Assembly: GCA_041662745.1 (NCBI GenBank) | Contig: JBAZRV010000004.1 | Span: 6,315 to 70,314 of the forward strand | DNA: 64,000 bases | Source: Patescibacteria group bacterium | GTDB taxonomy: Bacteria; Patescibacteriota; Patescibacteriia; 2-01-FULL-39-33 | Direction of reading: 5' to 3' | Shown here: positions 40,655 to 47,883 of the stretch, one piece after another | Position numbering within the stretch: position 1 is the stretch's first letter | Layout of the letters: each line of letters begins with the position of its first letter | The notes under the pieces: generated by a model | Database searches by the model: none | The model's input: only the letters and a program-made list of their open reading frames with translations | What the model was told of the DNA's origin: nothing | Made by a program: the position numbers and the translations under genes

Positions 40655-40990
40655 TTTTATTTTATTTTATATTGTCATTCCCGCGTACCTTGCCTACCGA
40701 CAGGCAGGGGCGGGAATCCAGGTTTTCTTGTCGTCCTGATCGTAATGAGGGATCTAAAGTTAAATTCAAATTTATTTCTGATACCTTTCTCTATGAGAAA
40801 GGTATCTCCAAAGAGTCGCGAGCGAAGCATAAATCATGGCCTCTTGTCATTCTGAGCAAAGCGAAGAATCTCAGGTTTAAACTTTAGATCCTTCGTTTTC
40901 GCTCCCGCCTCGCTTCCGCTTCACTCGGGATGACGAAAAGGAAACTGAATCTAATTCTTGAATTCTCTGGTCGTTCCCGCATAAAGTCGC
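40655..40990. repeat. Cluster of MITE-like palindromic elements in the parB-parA spacer
   Basis: GTCATTCCCGCG...GGCGGGAATCCAGGTT at about 40676-40726. GTCATTCTGAGCAAAGCGAAGAATCTCAGGTTT at about 40826-40860. An inverted partner CCTTCGTTTTCGCTCCCGCCTCGCTTCCGCTTCACTCGGGATGAC at about 40883-40932. The family also has a copy at 51886-51925. Confidence 0.6.
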
Positions 40991-41962: not shown

Positions 41963-42425
41963 AAAACATGGCATATGGCTAATGGCATATAACTTATGGT
42001 TTAATTATTAACTATAAGCTATGTGCCATTTGCTATGCGCTATCTGTTGACTGGCTCGGTTGTGAACCAGCCAATATCAAGTATTATAAGGTATTTTGAG
42101 GAATTTGTCAAAGGCCGGTTTGAGGCCTCTTGGTCTAGGGGAAAATGCGACAAATGCGACAGTACTTTGGCACTTCCAATTTTATAATTCTGAAGGGTTA
42201 AATGAGACAAATGAGACACCTATAGTGTGTTTTGAAAATAGTATCAAAAGCACGTTTTATGTTTAATTTTAGATTAAAATTTGATGAGACAGCCCGATGA
42301 TGATTGTCTCATTTGCTAAATGCGATTTTTGCCAGCTCTTGACAGAATTTGAGCTTACATTTATGATTAAACATCTAGTTGTATTTGCGCTACTACCAAA
42401 TTATTTGTTATAATATAGTCAACCT

Positions 42426-42962
42426 ATGAATATTCCCCTAGTAAAATTAAAAGCAATCCTTTTGTACTTCGGGACATTTACTGAACAACGTTTTCTCGGC
42501 AAGGTAAAACTCATGAAGTTATTCTACTTCTTGGATTTTATGCATGTCAAAAAATTCGGTTCTCCGGTAACTTACGATAATTATATCAAACTAGAGCATG
42601 GGCCCATTCCCTCTGCAATAAAGAACATGGTAGACACTGCGGAGGATGATGTGGATAATTCAGTCTTGTCTGATACTATAAAAATTGAAATGGCTGACGG
42701 AGAAGGAATCCATAGAATTGTCGCTCTAAGAAAGTTCACTGAAAATGACAAAAAATATTTCACGCCGACAGAAATTAATATACTGGAAACCGTAGTAGAA
42801 AGATTTGGTAGCAAGAATACGAAGTTCATCGAAGACGCCTCTCACAATGAAGCCCCCTGGAAAGAGACTTCATTTATGGATTCAATTCCGTATTGGCTGG
42901 CTACGCATGATAATGACTGCCAGGTAAGCAGGGAGGAAATTGAGTTAATGTTGTCAATCTAG
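42426..42962 (+). CDS. Panacea-domain (DUF4065, SocA-like) protein, a putative antitoxin
   Basis: KLMKLFYFLDFMHVKKFGSPVTYDNYIKLEHGPIPS matches the DUF4065/Panacea core. Confidence 0.55.
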   Translation: MNIPLVKLKAILLYFGTFTEQRFLGKVKLMKLFYFLDFMHVKKFGSPVTYDNYIKLEHGPIPSAIKNMVDTAEDDVDNSVLSDTIKIEMADGEGIHRIVALRKFTENDKKYFTPTEINILETVVERFGSKNTKFIEDASHNEAPWKETSFMDSIPYWLATHDNDCQVSREEIELMLSI

Positions 42963-42966
42963 CCAT

Positions 42967-43359
42967 ATGGATGCTTTACTATTCGGCGATATATTTAGAT
43001 TTAGGGAGGAAGAATATGTCTACCTGGCTTCAGGCGACGGAGTCGATTTTGCGGCCAGAATCCTCAATACTTTTAATACCAACCAAATAGTGGAGTTGGA
43101 TAACCGAAAGGCAATGGGCCATGGCGCAAACAGGACTAATAGCAATCCGCTTTATTGCTATGTTATTTTGCAGACGGATGAATATAAGAATCAAGCAGCG
43201 CACTTCAAGGATAGCCAATATGATTCCGGCCGGCTAATGTTCGAAAAAACCGGTTCGTTATGCGCTGAAGACCAACAGGAAATCAAGAAGAAAATAATTG
43301 ATCCAGCCAGTCCGATCCCATTGGGTCTTAGAGATATAATTTTAAACATGGATATATAG
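42967..43359 (+). CDS. Hypothetical 130-aa protein, a candidate toxin partner of the Panacea-domain protein
   Basis: It starts 4 bp after the Panacea ORF stop and is co-oriented with it. No recognised domain. Confidence 0.4.
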   Translation: MDALLFGDIFRFREEEYVYLASGDGVDFAARILNTFNTNQIVELDNRKAMGHGANRTNSNPLYCYVILQTDEYKNQAAHFKDSQYDSGRLMFEKTGSLCAEDQQEIKKKIIDPASPIPLGLRDIILNMDI

Positions 43360-43458
43360 AAACAGATAAAAAAAGACATCCTGCGAGGGATGTTTTTTGA
43401 TTAATTGACCGATAGTTAGCCATCATATATAATTAAGCTATCACCATGAAAGAAACCC

Positions 43459-43674
43459 TTATGCAGATCCGTCTGCCTCGGGGGTTTTTTCTTTTTGGCC
43501 GATAAACAGGTAAATATAGGCGGCTTGGAATTTTTGGCTGAGCCAGCCGTGGAATTTTTTGTAATCAATGGCAAATCCCAGCTCCTGGGCGCTGCGGTAA
43601 AGGTTATTGCCGTCGATGTAAATGTTGATTTTGGACATGAGATTATGATATCGGGCTATAAACATGACAATCAA
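43459..43674 (-). pseudogene. N-terminal fragment of a NYN/LabA-like domain gene
   Basis: INIYIDGNNLYRSAQ...YIYLFIG aligns with the N-terminus of the full NYN protein at 50866-51402 (AFIDSNNLYQS...FLFIGF). The fragment breaks off after 71 aa. Confidence 0.5.
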
Positions 43675-43680
43675 ACTAAT

Positions 43681-45690
43681 TTATTTAACTTTAAATTCCC
43701 TAGCTTGTTCTTTTTCTGTCCTTTGCCATTTTTCAAATTCAACTGGAATACCATTTTCTCTCCAAAACTCAGCCCAATCTTTATACGCCTCAATTAGATA
43801 GGGAAATCTTCCAATTTTTCTTGCTGCACTCCTTGCATAACCATCGCTTAAATAAAAATCTCTAACCAACTTTTTTTGTGACGCCACGATTTCGCCAACA
43901 TCCACGGAGGATTCAATTGTCGGCGCCTCTTGGTCTAACACCTCCCATTCATCCCATCCCTCGCTTATCAATTCATCAAGTGTTTTATCAGTATCAATAA
44001 TTTCACCATTAGCATCATTATATTTTAATTTTGCAGTCCTTCCTAGAGCTGTTTCTGGGTATGGCGTTTCTGGGGCGACTCTTATATGATCAATTTCTAA
44101 AAATCTCTCTCTTTCTCCATCTCTTAATCCAAATCTTTCTGCAACTAAATCAGATAGCTCTGTTGCCGTATAAGTATTGGCATTTTCTCCCTCTTGTGAC
44201 GATTCAGCTTGTCTATCAAAAATAAATTCCACTGCCTGGCGGAGAAGTTCATAATCAGAAAAAAGCTGTTTTGGAATCTCCAGTTCTAACAATACTCTTG
44301 CCTTTTGCTCGAATAATTCGTCCTGGTTTTCTCTGCCCCAAACAAAATATCCTCTAGTAAACATTCCAAGGTCGCTTGATCGTTTTAATGACCAAACAGC
44401 ATTAGTATATTTTTTTATACCCTCCTGCATTAACTTCTCTCTATCAGCTTCTCCAGTCGGCCTTTTAAGGTTAACCACGTCAATGGGATTAAATGCTTCT
44501 ATTCCTATTCCAATTTTAGAACAACCAGATTTTTTCATAAGCTCCAAAACCTTCTCCGCTTTTCCGCTTACTATTTCCTTTTCGTCGAAAGCTCTTGCCA
44601 GACAAAACCAGTGCACCAATTCTTTATCCTCATCGCTGAATACGCCACTTTTAATCATTTTCAAGCATAGGTCTTCGACATGCTGAATATTTTCGTTAAA
44701 AGTCAAATCTGCAAAATATACAAAATTTGTCCTATATTCAGGATCATCATGATATTTCTTTATTTCAGTGACTATCGATTTCGGATCCCTATACTTTACT
44801 GGCGTTCTATACCTACCACTGCCAGTATCCTCGCCCCAAACCATGGGAGAACTGCAAAACTCACAATTACCTGGGCAACCGCGACAGGAAGAAATCTGAA
44901 TTTCACCTCTTATCTCCTTATGAGAAGGAAAACTACCAAATTGAGTACAGTCTACACTTGAAGGCACCTCCTTAACACCTTCAACCACCCCGTCATTATT
45001 TTTGACGGGAACAACGATCCTCCTATACGCTTCAGGCAATACTTCGAGTTCCTTGTTGGTCATCCTTTTTCTCGGTCTGAATTCATTTACGGCCCCATCC
45101 TCTCTATAAATAATTCCCTCAACTCCAGAAAAATCAGCTTGCCCTTCTTCAACTTTTTTCGCTAATTCTAAAATAGTTTCCTCACCCTCTCCAATAACAA
45201 AAAAATCGACTAAACTAATATTGTCTCCTAATTCTTTTTTCAATTCCTCTTCCCAGGCATTATATTTTTTACTTAAATAAACTTTATCTTTCATGGCAGA
45301 TATATGATAGCCGCCGATTACAATCTTTATTTCTGGATCAGCTTCTTTAATTTTTTTAGCGATCTGCAATGCGCGGTTAAACAGCGGAGTAATAGCACTA
45401 ATTCCAACCATCATACAATCTCCCTGCCTTTTAATGACTTCAGCAATATCTTCGTCAGTTATGTTTATGGGTTCTTCGCCCTCGGGAGTTCCGTCTAACG
45501 CAATCTCGATGTGTTTTCTTTTTACTGGCCTTTGATGAATTAGAGAAACATCAAAACCTCCTCGATCTTTCAAAAATCCTCCTAGTGTTTCTATGGCATA
45601 TGGAGGAGCCTGATTGCCCCTTTTTGCTGGTTCTGGTGTAAAATTCATGCCACCTATGGGCTCAATTAAAATAACTCTTGATTTTGGCAT
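43681..45690 (-). CDS. B12-binding-domain radical SAM protein with a 200-aa C-terminal extension
   Basis: An N-terminal B12-binding-like region is followed by CPGNCEFC (CxxxCxxC). The C-terminal 200 aa has no match I can recognise. Confidence 0.65.
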   Translation of the reverse strand: MPKSRVILIEPIGGMNFTPEPAKRGNQAPPYAIETLGGFLKDRGGFDVSLIHQRPVKRKHIEIALDGTPEGEEPINITDEDIAEVIKRQGDCMMVGISAITPLFNRALQIAKKIKEADPEIKIVIGGYHISAMKDKVYLSKKYNAWEEELKKELGDNISLVDFFVIGEGEETILELAKKVEEGQADFSGVEGIIYREDGAVNEFRPRKRMTNKELEVLPEAYRRIVVPVKNNDGVVEGVKEVPSSVDCTQFGSFPSHKEIRGEIQISSCRGCPGNCEFCSSPMVWGEDTGSGRYRTPVKYRDPKSIVTEIKKYHDDPEYRTNFVYFADLTFNENIQHVEDLCLKMIKSGVFSDEDKELVHWFCLARAFDEKEIVSGKAEKVLELMKKSGCSKIGIGIEAFNPIDVVNLKRPTGEADREKLMQEGIKKYTNAVWSLKRSSDLGMFTRGYFVWGRENQDELFEQKARVLLELEIPKQLFSDYELLRQAVEFIFDRQAESSQEGENANTYTATELSDLVAERFGLRDGERERFLEIDHIRVAPETPYPETALGRTAKLKYNDANGEIIDTDKTLDELISEGWDEWEVLDQEAPTIESSVDVGEIVASQKKLVRDFYLSDGYARSAARKIGRFPYLIEAYKDWAEFWRENGIPVEFEKWQRTEKEQAREFKVK

Positions 45691-45888
45691 ATGAGAAATT
45701 AACTATTATTTCCTATATTTTACTACCTTTTAAGTCCTATTGCAAACTTAAAACTTATCAACTCTTTACCTACTCCAACCATCCTGGACTCCTCAAGAGG
45801 GTTGCGTCATCAATGTCCATAGTAATAACCAAAAACTATAGACAACAACCAAAAATCAAGGGTTTCAAGTGATTTTCAAGGCGATTTA

Positions 45889-47151
45889 GTGCCACTTAAG
45901 TACTGCCTTTATGCCAGAAAATCGACCGAGGCCGATGACAAGCAAGTGTTATCCATCGAATCCCAAGTCAAAGAGATGCTGGCTCTGGCTAGCAAGGATT
46001 CCTTAGATGTAGTAGAAATCAAGCGGGAAGCCCACTCATCTAAGGATGTTGGCCAAAGGCCGATTTACAACGAAATGATTTCTGAAATCAGAGCGGGCAA
46101 GTTTAACGGCATTCTGACCTGGGCGCCGGATCGGCTCAGCCGCAATGCCGGAGATTTGGGCTCAGTTGTGGATTTGATGGATCAGAAACTACTTTTGGAA
46201 ATCAGGACGTATGGCCAGAAGTTCAGCAATAATCCCAATGAGAAATTCCTGTTAATGATTTTAGGCAGCCAAGCCAAGCTGGAAAATGACAATAAAGCGA
46301 TTAACATTAAAAGAGGACTCCGAACCAGGTGCGAAATGGGCTGGCGGCCGGGCGTGGCTCCGACCGGATACTTAAATGAAAAACACGCCGACAAAAAGTG
46401 CCAATCCCGATTAGATCCCAAGAGAGCTGTCATTATCAAAAATATGTTCGAGAAATCGGCTAATGATAATTGGAGTGGCCGAAAAATCTACAGATGGCTT
46501 CGCGAGATTGACTTTAGAACTAAGACCGGCAAGCGATTAGTTTTGGCCAATGTCTATCTGATTTTAAGAAATCCATATTACTACGGTGAATTTGAATTCC
46601 CGGTGGGTAGTGGTAATTGGTACAGTGGCAAACATACGCCGATTATCACTAAGGAACTATTCGACAAAACGCAATTAGCCCTTAACGACCACAATCTACC
46701 TAAGACCGAGAGCAAGGAATTCGCCTTCACTAAACTAATTAAATGCGGCTATTGCGGTTCGGGCATTTCGGCTGATGAGAAATTCAAGAAGCTTAAAAAC
46801 GGCGGCACTAACCGCCATGTCTATTATTTTTGCTCCAAGGCCAGAAATATAGATTGCAAAAATCAACCGATTAATGAAACCAACTTAATCACTGAACTGG
46901 CCGGCTTAATCGATCGGATCAGCTTGGATGAACTGGGCGTCCAGCAGAAAATTGAGGATGAATTCAAAAGATACAACAAATTCAGAATCAGCGTGCTGGG
47001 TAAAAAGAATGAGGAATGCAATAGCGAAGTGGACATCAAGAATTTCGTCAAATACCTACTTAAAGACGGCACGATTCTGGAAAAACGAGAATTGCTTGCT
47101 TGCCTTAAAAGCAGATTGATCCTAAAAGACAGGCAAATCAGTTTGGAATAA
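45889..47151 (+). CDS. Large serine recombinase, 420 aa
   Basis: YARKSTEADDKQVLSIESQ...APDRLSRN catalytic motif and a C-terminal CGYCG...YYFCSK Zn ribbon. Confidence 0.8.
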   Translation: MPLKYCLYARKSTEADDKQVLSIESQVKEMLALASKDSLDVVEIKREAHSSKDVGQRPIYNEMISEIRAGKFNGILTWAPDRLSRNAGDLGSVVDLMDQKLLLEIRTYGQKFSNNPNEKFLLMILGSQAKLENDNKAINIKRGLRTRCEMGWRPGVAPTGYLNEKHADKKCQSRLDPKRAVIIKNMFEKSANDNWSGRKIYRWLREIDFRTKTGKRLVLANVYLILRNPYYYGEFEFPVGSGNWYSGKHTPIITKELFDKTQLALNDHNLPKTESKEFAFTKLIKCGYCGSGISADEKFKKLKNGGTNRHVYYFCSKARNIDCKNQPINETNLITELAGLIDRISLDELGVQQKIEDEFKRYNKFRISVLGKKNEECNSEVDIKNFVKYLLKDGTILEKRELLACLKSRLILKDRQISLE

Positions 47152-47164
47152 ATCTAAAACTAAA

Positions 47165-47192
47165 AATACCGCGGAAAAACCGCGGTATTTTG
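47165..47192 (+). terminator. Rho-independent terminator after the recombinase gene
   Basis: AATACCGCGGAAAAACCGCGGTATTTT. Confidence 0.65.
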
Positions 47193-47241
47193 TGGCTAAA
47201 TCAGTGATACCTCTCGGTCATTTGACTTAGCATAAGCGTGT

Positions 47242-47314
47242 TGCGGGGGGCGGATTCGAACCGCCGACCTCTTGGTTATGAGCCAAGCGAGCTGCCGGAC
47301 TGCTCTACCCCGCG
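47242..47314 (-). tRNA. Initiator tRNA-fMet (CAU)
   Basis: The reverse complement reads CGCGGGGTAGAGCAG...GGCTCATAACCAAG...GGTTCGAATCCGCCCCCCGCA, with the C1:A72 mismatch typical of bacterial initiator tRNA. Confidence 0.8.
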
Positions 47315-47359
47315 ATAATATTTTATTTTCCCTCTCTCCTTAAAAAGATGAGACTGGTG

Positions 47360-47441
47360 TGCCCGAGGAGAGACTCGAACTCTCACATATTGCTATACAC
47401 GATTTTGAGTCGTGCGCGTCTACCAGTTCCGCCACTCGGGC
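47360..47441 (-). tRNA. tRNA-Leu (CAA)
   Basis: The reverse complement reads GCCCGAGTGGCGGAACTGGTAGACGCGCACGACTCAAAATCGTG, followed by a long variable arm and GAGAGTTCGAGTCTCTCCTCGGGCA. Confidence 0.8.
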
Positions 47442-47446
47442 CTGAG

Positions 47447-47685
47447 TTATAACAAACTTTTTAACCATTCTTTACCACAACCTGACTTTAAATATTTTTC
47501 TCTTTGTCTTGCATCTATTCTCGTACTATACTTTTCTGTTATAATCATTTTAAATGGTCGATAAAATCTTGTTGTCCTCTCTCGTCCATTATTGTGGCGA
47601 CTAAATCTGTCATCAAAATCAGAGGTTTGACCGACATAAATATAATTATGTTTTATACTTTGCAAGGCATAAACAGTATACTCCA
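47447..47685 (-). CDS. GIY-YIG nuclease-superfamily protein (YhbQ/UPF0213-like), about 79 aa from the internal Met
   Basis: MEYTVYALQSIKHNYIYVGQTSDFDDRFSRHNNG...REKYLKSGCGKEW. The ORF-track start at 47749 lies inside the tRNA-derived sequence. Confidence 0.6.
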
Positions 47686-47699
47686 TAAGAAAAATATTT

Positions 47700-47755
47700 A
47701 AAGTCGTGCGCGCCTGCCTGCCGGCAGGCAGGTCTACCAGTTCCGCCACTCGGGC
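47700..47755 (-). other. Duplicated 5' half of tRNA-Leu (pseudo-tRNA or att-like remnant) carrying a 19-nt palindromic insertion
   Basis: The reverse complement reads GCCCGAGTGGCGGAACTGGTAGAC[CTGCCTGCCGGCAGGCAGG]CGCGCACGACTT. Outside the insertion it is identical to tRNA-Leu positions 1-37, and it ends inside the anticodon loop. Confidence 0.7.
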
Positions 47756-47883
47756 AATTTAGACTTTATTTATTTTATACTATTTTTTGAAAATTGTCAA
47801 ATATTTCAGAGTTTGATATAATTAAAACATTGTAAATCTGCCTATTTGAGCCTATTGTCATTCAAATAGCAGACCAAAACCAT

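Follow-up and report, generated by a model that had tools for sequence, protein, structure and literature searches.

A 314-bp segment on the minus strand of a Patescibacteria group bacterium (47442-47755 of the 64,000-nucleotide (nt) stretch of contig JBAZRV010000004.1 analyzed here, in the following the window) is, as comparison with relatives shows, an insertion into a tRNA-Leu(CAA) gene. The insertion is accompanied by a compensating partial duplication of its target, and the tRNA remains intact. It comprises an open reading frame (ORF) for a GIY-YIG nuclease and a 20-bp perfect palindrome, here called PAL. We consider, with a probability of roughly 0.65, that the segment represents a minimal selfish, homing-like, free-standing nuclease gene of the Slx1/UPF0213 type, which resides inside tRNA-Leu(CAA) and employs tRNA genes as portable homology. 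A survey of homologous loci shows that it is one member of a large family with a common design and not a one-off. The preliminary description of the locus had viewed it as a singular oddity, either the footprint of a site-specific integration or a homing-like event. The latter is the better of these two readings, while the locus has many counterparts and its palindrome both recurs within the design and is widespread on its own.

Filled and empty alleles of the tRNA-Leu locus

Relatives were anchored by a divergently oriented neighbor gene of 161 amino acids (aa), whose product is 91% identical to that of the window in L209 (a 958-kb contig) and 84% identical in L212. In both relatives an 83-nt tRNA-Leu, 100% identical to the intact tRNA-Leu(CAA) of the window, lies directly behind the same promoter flank, without tRNA fragment, PAL or ORF. 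In the window, this native promoter is now found just upstream of a displaced tRNA fragment, and 314 extra bp are present (PAL plus 294 bp). An insertion into the tRNA-Leu gene with the nuclease as its only gene, as the preliminary description had proposed, is supported. The uninterrupted tRNA-Leu that it suggested looking for in relatives exists, and the arrangement is not common to all of them, as L209 and L212 are empty. A further match from another sample, L003, differs from the window in a single position over 2381 nt, the initial base. The 31-mer with which it starts links tRNA nt 25-24 to the promoter flank, a junction possible only in an empty allele, and this one k-mer is suggestive of an empty allele at strain level. 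The more distant L215 (neighbor protein 55% and nuclease 71% identical) harbors the element at the same locus and with the same internal layout.

Assemblers can be misled by short repeats, and an artefact of this kind would have to be considered. However, the same structure was recovered in L001 (ENA) and L002 (Logan), the layout is identical in three independent assemblies, and more than 60 unrelated loci show it as well. A split or permuted tRNA, the other possibility raised in the preliminary description, fares no better: the window contains no matching second 3' half for the fragment, and the fragments of the family are variable, decayed and riddled with hairpin insertions. We regard both explanations as practically negligible.

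Anatomy of the inserted unit

Read 5' to 3' on the minus strand, the unit consists of promoter, tRNA-Leu nt 1-23, PAL, tRNA-Leu nt 24-34, leader, ORF, spacer, tRNA-Leu, tRNA-Met and terminator (Table 1). The upstream tRNA copy had been given as nt 1-37, ending inside the anticodon loop, interrupted by a perfect palindrome of 19 nt and located 260 bp upstream of the intact tRNA on the same strand. The copy is real, its end lies exactly 260 nt from the intact tRNA, and it does end inside the anticodon loop, but after U33, and thus comprises nt 1-34. The palindrome is likewise perfect and does interrupt the copy, but it measures 20 nt, as the quoted 19-mer lacked the first C. The nuclease is indeed the only real gene between the two copies. 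Within the window, the 24-nt repeat was detected by blastn-short with E = 1e-7, and PAL, for which zero matches are expected in shuffles, occurs in one exact copy. A chance origin of palindrome and repeat is excluded.

Table 1. Coordinates of the inserted unit and its surroundings in the window, ordered along the minus strand
Feature	Position	Strand	Basis or remark
Sigma-70-type promoter TTGACA-17-TAAAAT, 11/12	47772-47800	-	consensus signal scan
314-bp segment (20-bp PAL + 294 bp), present in the window, absent from relatives	47442-47755	-	alignment; placement ambiguous within repeat
Displaced resident 5' part of tRNA-Leu(CAA), nt 1-23	47733-47755	-	identical to intact gene
PAL, 20-bp perfect palindrome CCTGCCTGCCGGCAGGCAGG	47713-47732	-	clean insert between tRNA nt 23/24, D-loop/D-stem junction
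tRNA-Leu nt 24-34 (CGCGCACGACT)	47702-47712	-	fragment end, after U33 of anticodon loop
Left arm of 18-nt perfect inverted repeat (GACTTTAAATATTTTTCT)	47688-47705	-	ends 1 nt before start codon
A/T-rich leader, 15 nt, preceding ATG	47687-47701	-	
GIY-YIG nuclease ORF, 79 aa, stop codon included	47447-47686	-	Pfam PF01541, E = 4.7e-17
Right arm of 18-nt inverted repeat	47484-47501	-	inside codons for REKYLKS
Spacer CTCAG, 5 nt, stop codon to tRNA nt 1	47442-47446	-	
Intact tRNA-Leu(CAA)	47359-47441	-	ARAGORN and Rfam, 57.4 bits; first 34 nt are the gene-restoring copy
tRNA-Met(CAT), next gene of same unit	47240-47314	-	ARAGORN, Rfam
Intrinsic terminator closing the unit, after tRNA-Met	47163-47191	-	signal scan

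The database model of the nuclease (P0001, 100 aa) begins at a GTG inside the tRNA fragment, a peculiarity already pointed out in the preliminary description. Since all homologues begin, according to the protein alignment, at the internal ATG (47686), the 100-aa start is an annotation artefact. The 18-nt inverted repeat between leader and coding sequence (CDS) recurs in L215, where one pair has changed by compensation from C-G to U-A, and is absent from the rest of the nuclease family. Being confined to the window and the L215 subclade, it was rejected as a family feature or as the termini of the element, and the predicted pairing is probably a lineage-specific translational brake.

Since the promoter precedes the fragment and the terminator follows tRNA-Met, the layout reads as one transcription unit, and an operon is supported by this order of predicted signals. 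One might see in it an operon useful to the host, in which the nuclease acts on tRNA genes or transcripts (repair, gene conversion or processing) and the hairpin leader serves as regulatory 5' untranslated region. Such a role would fit the near-universal co-orientation and layout-based co-transcription with tRNAs, the purifying selection on the ORF and the leader/CDS pairing, which occludes the start region and is maintained by compensation in L215. In addition, a prokaryotic Slx1-like domain fused to a TrmH-type tRNA methyltransferase has been noted (Dunin-Horkawicz et al., 2006; PMC1564403). However, the closest relatives, and apparently one identical strain too, do without the element, the pairing is limited to one subclade, the fragments decay and vary in length, and arrays and relics within the family resemble repeated invasions. 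Thus, a host operon appears quite improbable to us.

A family of nuclease genes at tRNA genes

A metagenome scan by the protein motif EK[YF]LKSGxG alone yielded at least 530 relatives, 80 loci of which were fetched for the counts given here. A tRNA on the same strand follows the ORF within 400 nt in 54 of the 80, mostly at a distance of 0-30 nt, and precedes it in about 15 more, while an opposite-strand tRNA was found once. At least 61 of the 80 loci possess a partial copy of the adjoining tRNA across the ORF. Two layouts can be distinguished: type A comprises a 5' fragment, the ORF and the intact tRNA (49/80), type B the intact tRNA, the ORF and a 3' fragment that reaches the exact 3' end (10/80). 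Both types occur in three loci, and neither in 12, several of which are cut by contig ends. PAL or a near copy (up to 3 mismatches) lies within 300 nt of the ORF in 47/80, typically 33-70 nt before it, and is a constant feature of the design. The tRNAs belong to twelve species, namely Leu (all anticodons), Arg, Gly, Lys, Thr, Met, Gln, Phe, Asn, Ser, Tyr and Pro. The architecture recurs in L004 and L006, which stem from unrelated genomes and carry the palindrome at the equivalent position of their own tRNA-Leu copies. The ORFs of L159 and L164 are 90.5% nucleotide-identical next to the same tRNA-Arg(CCT), while their flanks are unrelated, as would fit a mobile cassette.

The fragment starts with tRNA nt 1, but its end varies between nt 9 and ~65. 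Consequently, the anticodon loop, to which the preliminary description had assigned the insertion, is no fixed insertion point, and the mirror-image type B duplicates the 3' part instead. Where PAL is lacking, the fragment holds other small palindromes (TCCGCCnnnGGCGGA, TGCGCCnnnGGCGCA). Relics without ORF were found in L012, L038, L009 and L092, the last of which retains the first six codons, and tandem arrays with diverged ORFs and foreign tRNA-Leu fragments in L143, L152, L004 and L162; in L004 and L143 such foreign fragments accompany the ORF. Arrays and ORF-less relics look like the outcome of repeated invasions.

Some loci show further arrangements. L224 (1004-1260) stems from a relative of the organism of the window. 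Some 115 nt of GC-rich hairpin DNA separate its tRNA-Leu(CAA) from a duplicated tRNA 3' end and a terminator downstream, an arrangement that, without ORF, looks like a type B relic. In L023 (4010-4225), a complete tRNA-Met lies between a PAL-bearing tRNA 5' half and, downstream, its matching 3' half (acceptor strands GTCAGGG / CCCTGAC). In L069 (3861-4148), GIY ORF and PAL directly follow a long ORF whose end resembles a type I restriction subunit, with no tRNA adjoining, and the GIY ORFs of L190, L201 and L207 are flanked by other inverted repeats, again with no tRNA. L094 belongs to Agriterribacter humi YJ03, a cultured member of the Chitinophagaceae; here, right at the contig end, the terminal part of a GIY ORF precedes a tRNA-Arg(TCT) copy whose D-loop contains PAL. 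Among viral contigs only five matches were obtained, all at or within ~1.6 kb of a contig end, and phage carriage was discarded, as these matches were read as likely host flanks. Libraries of defence systems and phage families gave nothing informative.

The family also bears on the idea of a recombinase-driven, site-specific integration, in which the tRNA half would be a duplicated attachment (att) site, as the preliminary description assumed. Integration at tRNA genes is a classic phenomenon, and the gene of a large serine recombinase is located at 45889-47151, 90 nt beyond tRNA-Met. However, this gene lies outside the 314-bp insert, which contains one 79-aa ORF and no recombinase, and belongs to a separate 5.3-kb island that is also missing from relatives. 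Furthermore, serine recombinases leave no 34-bp direct repeat, the repeated part is the 5' part of the tRNA (nt 1-34) and not the 3' part, and dozens of homologous loci share the layout with no recombinase nearby. With the recombinase in another island and the wrong tRNA half repeated, we rejected this very improbable model. The island itself (41963-47239), located between two tRNA-Met genes, is a second insertion, independent of the GIY element. Apart from the recombinase it comprises a SocA/Panacea-like gene (42426-42962), an ORF of 130 aa and a radical SAM/B12-binding gene (43681-45690, minus strand). L209 lacks it, and its two tRNA-Met genes are 87 nt apart.

Conceivably, the locus might also be what remains of a group I intron that carried a homing-endonuclease ORF in the anticodon loop. 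Group I introns are known from bacterial tRNA-Leu genes and commonly have GIY-YIG ORFs as passengers (PMC3984707). However, an Rfam search of the locus up to E = 1 retrieved the two tRNAs only and no ribozyme, non-coding sequence between fragment and tRNA amounts to 20 nt only, what follows the ORF is a complete tRNA instead of a 3' exon, and the fragment end shifts across the family as described above. We rejected the intron on the Rfam result and the anatomy and give it hardly any credence.

The nuclease

The preliminary description placed the protein in the Slx1/YhbQ (UPF0213) branch of the GIY-YIG superfamily, and this assignment holds on profile and sequence comparison. The Pfam score is 62.5 bits (cut-off 22.6), and residues 3-68 align to positions 2-70 of the 78 positions of the GIY-YIG model, leaving room for the catalytic domain only. 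The closest sequences in the PDB are 1ywl (UPF0213, EF2693; 2.5e-8), 1zg2 (UPF0213, BH0048; 6.4e-7) and SLX1 (1.9e-6), followed by I-TevI (1.3e-3), and the NCBIfam model for group I intron endonucleases reaches 20.8 bits, far under its cut-off of 56 bits. The alignment of homologues shows no substitution of R27, H31 or E63, and Y6 and Y17 are nearly invariant. Past E63 only K67, S68 and G69 are invariant, and a C-terminal Asn is not conserved. The ratio of nonsynonymous to synonymous substitution rates (dN/dS) of the ORF is 0.10-0.25 in four pairs (0.25 against L215), which points to strong purifying selection. With its catalytic residues conserved and its dN/dS low, the nuclease is, as far as sequence can tell, functional. 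A separate DNA-binding domain, as in I-TevI and the Seg enzymes, was not found, since the catalytic domain fills the 79 aa.

A minimal single domain without conserved C-terminal Asn is a criterion for the Slx1-like group (PMC1564403). Minimal prokaryotic proteins of this kind were put in the Slx1 cluster and regarded as vertically inherited, while the selfish GIY-YIG enzymes were derived from the UvrC+ lineage (Dunin-Horkawicz et al., 2006; PMC1564403). The REKYLKSG clade studied here appears to contradict this generalization; it behaves like a mobile element resident in tRNA genes.

The palindrome PAL

If fragment and intact tRNA are compared, PAL is an exact 20-bp insertion with no target base gained or lost in 20 of 21 testable cases. 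Within the fragments it is most commonly found at the end of the D-loop after A21, further after nt 14-15, after nt 9 or within the anticodon stem; type B loci have it between T-stem and T-loop. These sites are mostly stem-loop junctions of the cloverleaf. The tRNA copy that carries PAL is always the redundant one; the working tRNA is free of it. Its variants include the compensatory pair G8-C13 to A8-T13, with both intermediates seen, as well as re-registered hairpins, and its flanks show a weak A^...^T preference only.

A genome scan with a 19-mer query and one genome per species gave at least 120 blocks. The PAL-bearing genomes (at least 120 species) belong to groups of the candidate phyla radiation (CPR), Bacteroidota (including cultured isolates and long-read assemblies), Omnitrophota and Planctomycetota, and, among the matches listed, also to delta- and gammaproteobacteria, Nitrospirota, Chloroflexi, Verrucomicrobia and Elusimicrobia. 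Across at least 10 phyla the sequence is identical. Among the matches listed, most 8-kb blocks hold a single PAL site, 11 of 121 copies lie in tRNA-like sequence, and a GIY gene is present in 8 of 120 blocks if an iterated broader GIY profile is used. All-against-all clustering of the ORFs in the 2 kb around the 120 listed sites revealed no recurrent protein family other than the GIY clade. Solitary copies are found at the apex of other hairpins or in one of two local repeats.

Several single loci deserve mention. In an Omnitrophota metagenome-assembled genome (L120, 1150-1600), a ~100-nt intergenic, non-tRNA repeat occurs twice, 226 nt apart, one copy with a clean 20-bp PAL insertion. In long ORFs PAL is also read in frame as LPAGRQ (L021 5955, L114 3773, L029 2815, L052 2000, L080 5886), and the ORFs concerned resemble FtsK, GatB, RmlB (dTDP-glucose dehydratase) and a GT39-type glycosyltransferase. 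Because removal of exactly 20 nt breaks the frame, these copies are 21-nt variants kept by selection. In the window itself, short GC-rich hairpin repeats are clustered at 40670-40930 (GTCATTCCCGCG...GCGGGAATC, GTCATTCTGAGCAAAGCGAAGAATC and others). A degenerate PAL copy, CTTGCCTACCGACAGGCAGG, occupies the apex of the first of them (40689-40708), and similar hairpins flank the GIY loci of L004, L006 and L018. Within 2 kb of PAL in L059, L112 and L119, a small ORF was found that resembles four-helix-bundle or 23S rRNA intervening-sequence proteins.

Two simple interpretations of PAL were tried and abandoned. A rule by which everything left of PAL is resident and everything right of it imported fits L133, while the data set as a whole does not discriminate. 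A repeat of the REP (repetitive extragenic palindromic) or MITE (miniature inverted-repeat transposable element) type was rejected in view of one exact copy in the 64 kb of the window, a single site in most of the 8-kb blocks listed, identity across phyla and no target duplication in 20/21 cases. Most likely, PAL labels or blocks the site of the break, abolishes the resemblance of the fragment to a tRNA and splits the direct repeat through which the element would otherwise be deleted. PAL is a separate, possibly new phenomenon. One might speculate that REKYLKSG nucleases and PAL together form a new mobile system, in which a structure-specific nuclease resident in tRNA genes would nick stem-loop junctions (tRNA cloverleafs, hairpins) and PAL would be pasted in blunt and in trans, without target duplication. 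We consider this idea rather doubtful, albeit worth stating. If it were true, PAL would be the smallest mobile DNA known, present in at least 10 phyla and tolerated in frame in essential genes as LPAGRQ.

Homing-like spread and its weak points

The element supplies, or generates, another copy of tRNA nt 1-34 immediately past its ORF, by which a complete tRNA-Leu is restored downstream, while the resident 5' part remains upstream with the native promoter as a dead leader. The layout suggests that this single strong tRNA promoter transcribes leader, nuclease ORF, tRNA-Leu and tRNA-Met, and that the tRNAs may be released by RNase P cleavage at tRNA position +1. If it acts like T4 SegB and further free-standing homing endonucleases, the nuclease would break tRNA-gene DNA at conserved or structured sites, such as the D-loop and T-loop junctions. 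The filled copy would then repair the break, with the conserved tRNA sequence flanking the ORF as portable homology, and the cassette could thereby move between alleles, isoacceptor genes and species. Two properties expected of homing elements are indeed observed. The element is optionally present, with a precise empty site in L209 and L212 and a suggestive 31-mer in L003, and it sits in a conserved gene without destroying its function, as tRNA-Leu is rebuilt here and at least 61/80 homologous loci agree.

Several points weigh against this proposal. The intact tRNA beside the element is identical to the empty allele, and consequently classical self-immunity by target disruption does not apply. 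Sequence-specific recognition of a long site by 79 aa without DNA-binding domain is doubtful. We infer the cleavage activity of the nuclease and its target in tRNA genes by analogy, the only hints being positional, namely PAL at D-loop and T-loop junctions. About 90% of the genomic PAL copies, among the matches listed, are near neither a tRNA nor a GIY gene, and thus PAL is not simply part of the nuclease element. Since the more distant L215 holds the element at the same locus, a precise loss between the direct repeats in the lineages of L209 and L212 is as possible as a gain in the lineage of the window. Gain or loss alike mean that the element is dispensable and unstable.

Finally, a minicircle that integrates by a Campbell-type crossover would give the same layout. 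In such a scenario, a circle of ~300 bp, composed of the PAL-bearing tRNA 5' segment and the ORF, would integrate and excise by homologous crossover left of PAL, with the nuclease as cargo or stimulator, and the crossover would put the PAL-bearing copy upstream and the intact tRNA downstream. The exact start of the duplicated segment is indeed tRNA nt 1, and its two copies form a direct repeat around the ORF. Precise empty sites and tandem arrays exist, and PAL should be absent from every working tRNA, as it is, if crossovers were viable only when they occur left of it. Head-to-tail junctions, in which the ORF end is joined to a PAL-bearing fragment, were even found in two independent assemblies (L007, L008), yet these may be low-k misassemblies across the 24-nt repeat. 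Moreover, the homology left of PAL is with 9-23 nt very short for RecA, type B loci require a mirror-image circle, and the strong purifying selection suggests that the nuclease matters for the persistence of the element. We consider such a circle unlikely and favor the homing-like nuclease cassette.

Relation to known systems

The nuclease cassette has its closest analogue in T4 SegB, a GIY-YIG homing enzyme encoded among tRNA genes, which recognizes the T-loop motif GGTTCRANTCC and cuts many tRNA genes including those of T4 itself (PMC2330249; also PMC13096335). Both are GIY-YIG genes among co-oriented tRNA genes and absent from close relatives, and SegB, with a conserved tRNA-gene motif as target, spreads together with flanking tRNA sequence. 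In contrast to the window element, SegB is phage-borne, has ~220 aa with a C-terminal DNA-binding domain, belongs to the homing endonuclease/UvrC branch and lies between tRNA genes, without partial tRNA duplication or palindrome. The window element is chromosomal, encodes 79 aa of the Slx1/UPF0213 branch and resides inside a tRNA gene, with compensating duplication and hairpin insertion.

Endonuclease ORFs with a duplication of part of their target are known as well, for example from Allomyces atp6/ORF360. Free-standing endonuclease ORFs of fungal mitochondria displace and duplicate a part of their target gene, which resulted in C-terminal duplications of cob and atp6 (PMC6279837). As in the window, they are inserted in a conserved gene, a replacement segment is supplied and the displaced piece persists beside the ORF as a pseudogene. 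However, their targets are protein genes in organelles, the enzymes are multi-domain and a conserved palindrome is lacking, whereas the window family targets tRNA genes in free-living and symbiotic bacteria of many phyla. The UPF0213 proteins 1ywl and 1zg2 are the best sequence matches of solved structure, single-domain and without conserved C-terminal Asn, yet their family is regarded as one of vertically inherited repair proteins, while the REKYLKSG clade looks mobile.

Integrase-borne genomic islands and prophages reportedly reside at tRNA genes, as Williams is said to have described in 2002 in Nucleic Acids Res. They resemble the window element in their landing site, in a partial tRNA repeat flanking the insert and in a tRNA kept intact. 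They differ by encoding a tyrosine or serine recombinase, by duplicating the 3' tRNA part and by a length of kilobases, whereas the window element has no recombinase, its family usually duplicates the 5' part and its size is ~0.3 kb. Small mobile palindromes comprise the Rickettsia palindromic elements, yeast mitochondrial GC clusters and the REP/RAYT system (RAYT, REP-associated tyrosine transposase). Like these, PAL is non-coding and inserted in intergenic DNA, in copies of RNA genes and in frame in protein genes. Unlike these, it measures 20 bp, occurs once or twice per locus instead of in high copy number, is identical across at least 10 phyla, causes no target duplication and has the GIY-YIG gene as its only recurrent neighbor among the matches listed. 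A published description of this layout or of the palindrome string was not found in open-access papers and bioRxiv, and the combination of nuclease, tRNA and palindrome appears undescribed. Taken together, the known kind is the free-standing homing-type nuclease gene with target duplication, and the design reported here is a variant of it.

Implications

The element explains a class of mis-annotated ORFs whose models extend into tRNA fragments, the ending of metagenome contigs at tRNA genes and truncated pseudo-tRNAs in CPR and other genomes, and it exposes a 20-bp palindrome common to many phyla. Cultured carriers, e.g., Agriterribacter humi YJ03 and, for PAL, several Flavobacteriaceae, make the mechanism directly testable. 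If our reading is true, the 'housekeeping' Slx1/UPF0213 branch would include mobile members, contrary to the usual view, and bacterial chromosomal tRNA genes would join the habitats of homing-type selfish genes, which are rendered harmless there by a partial duplication of their target.

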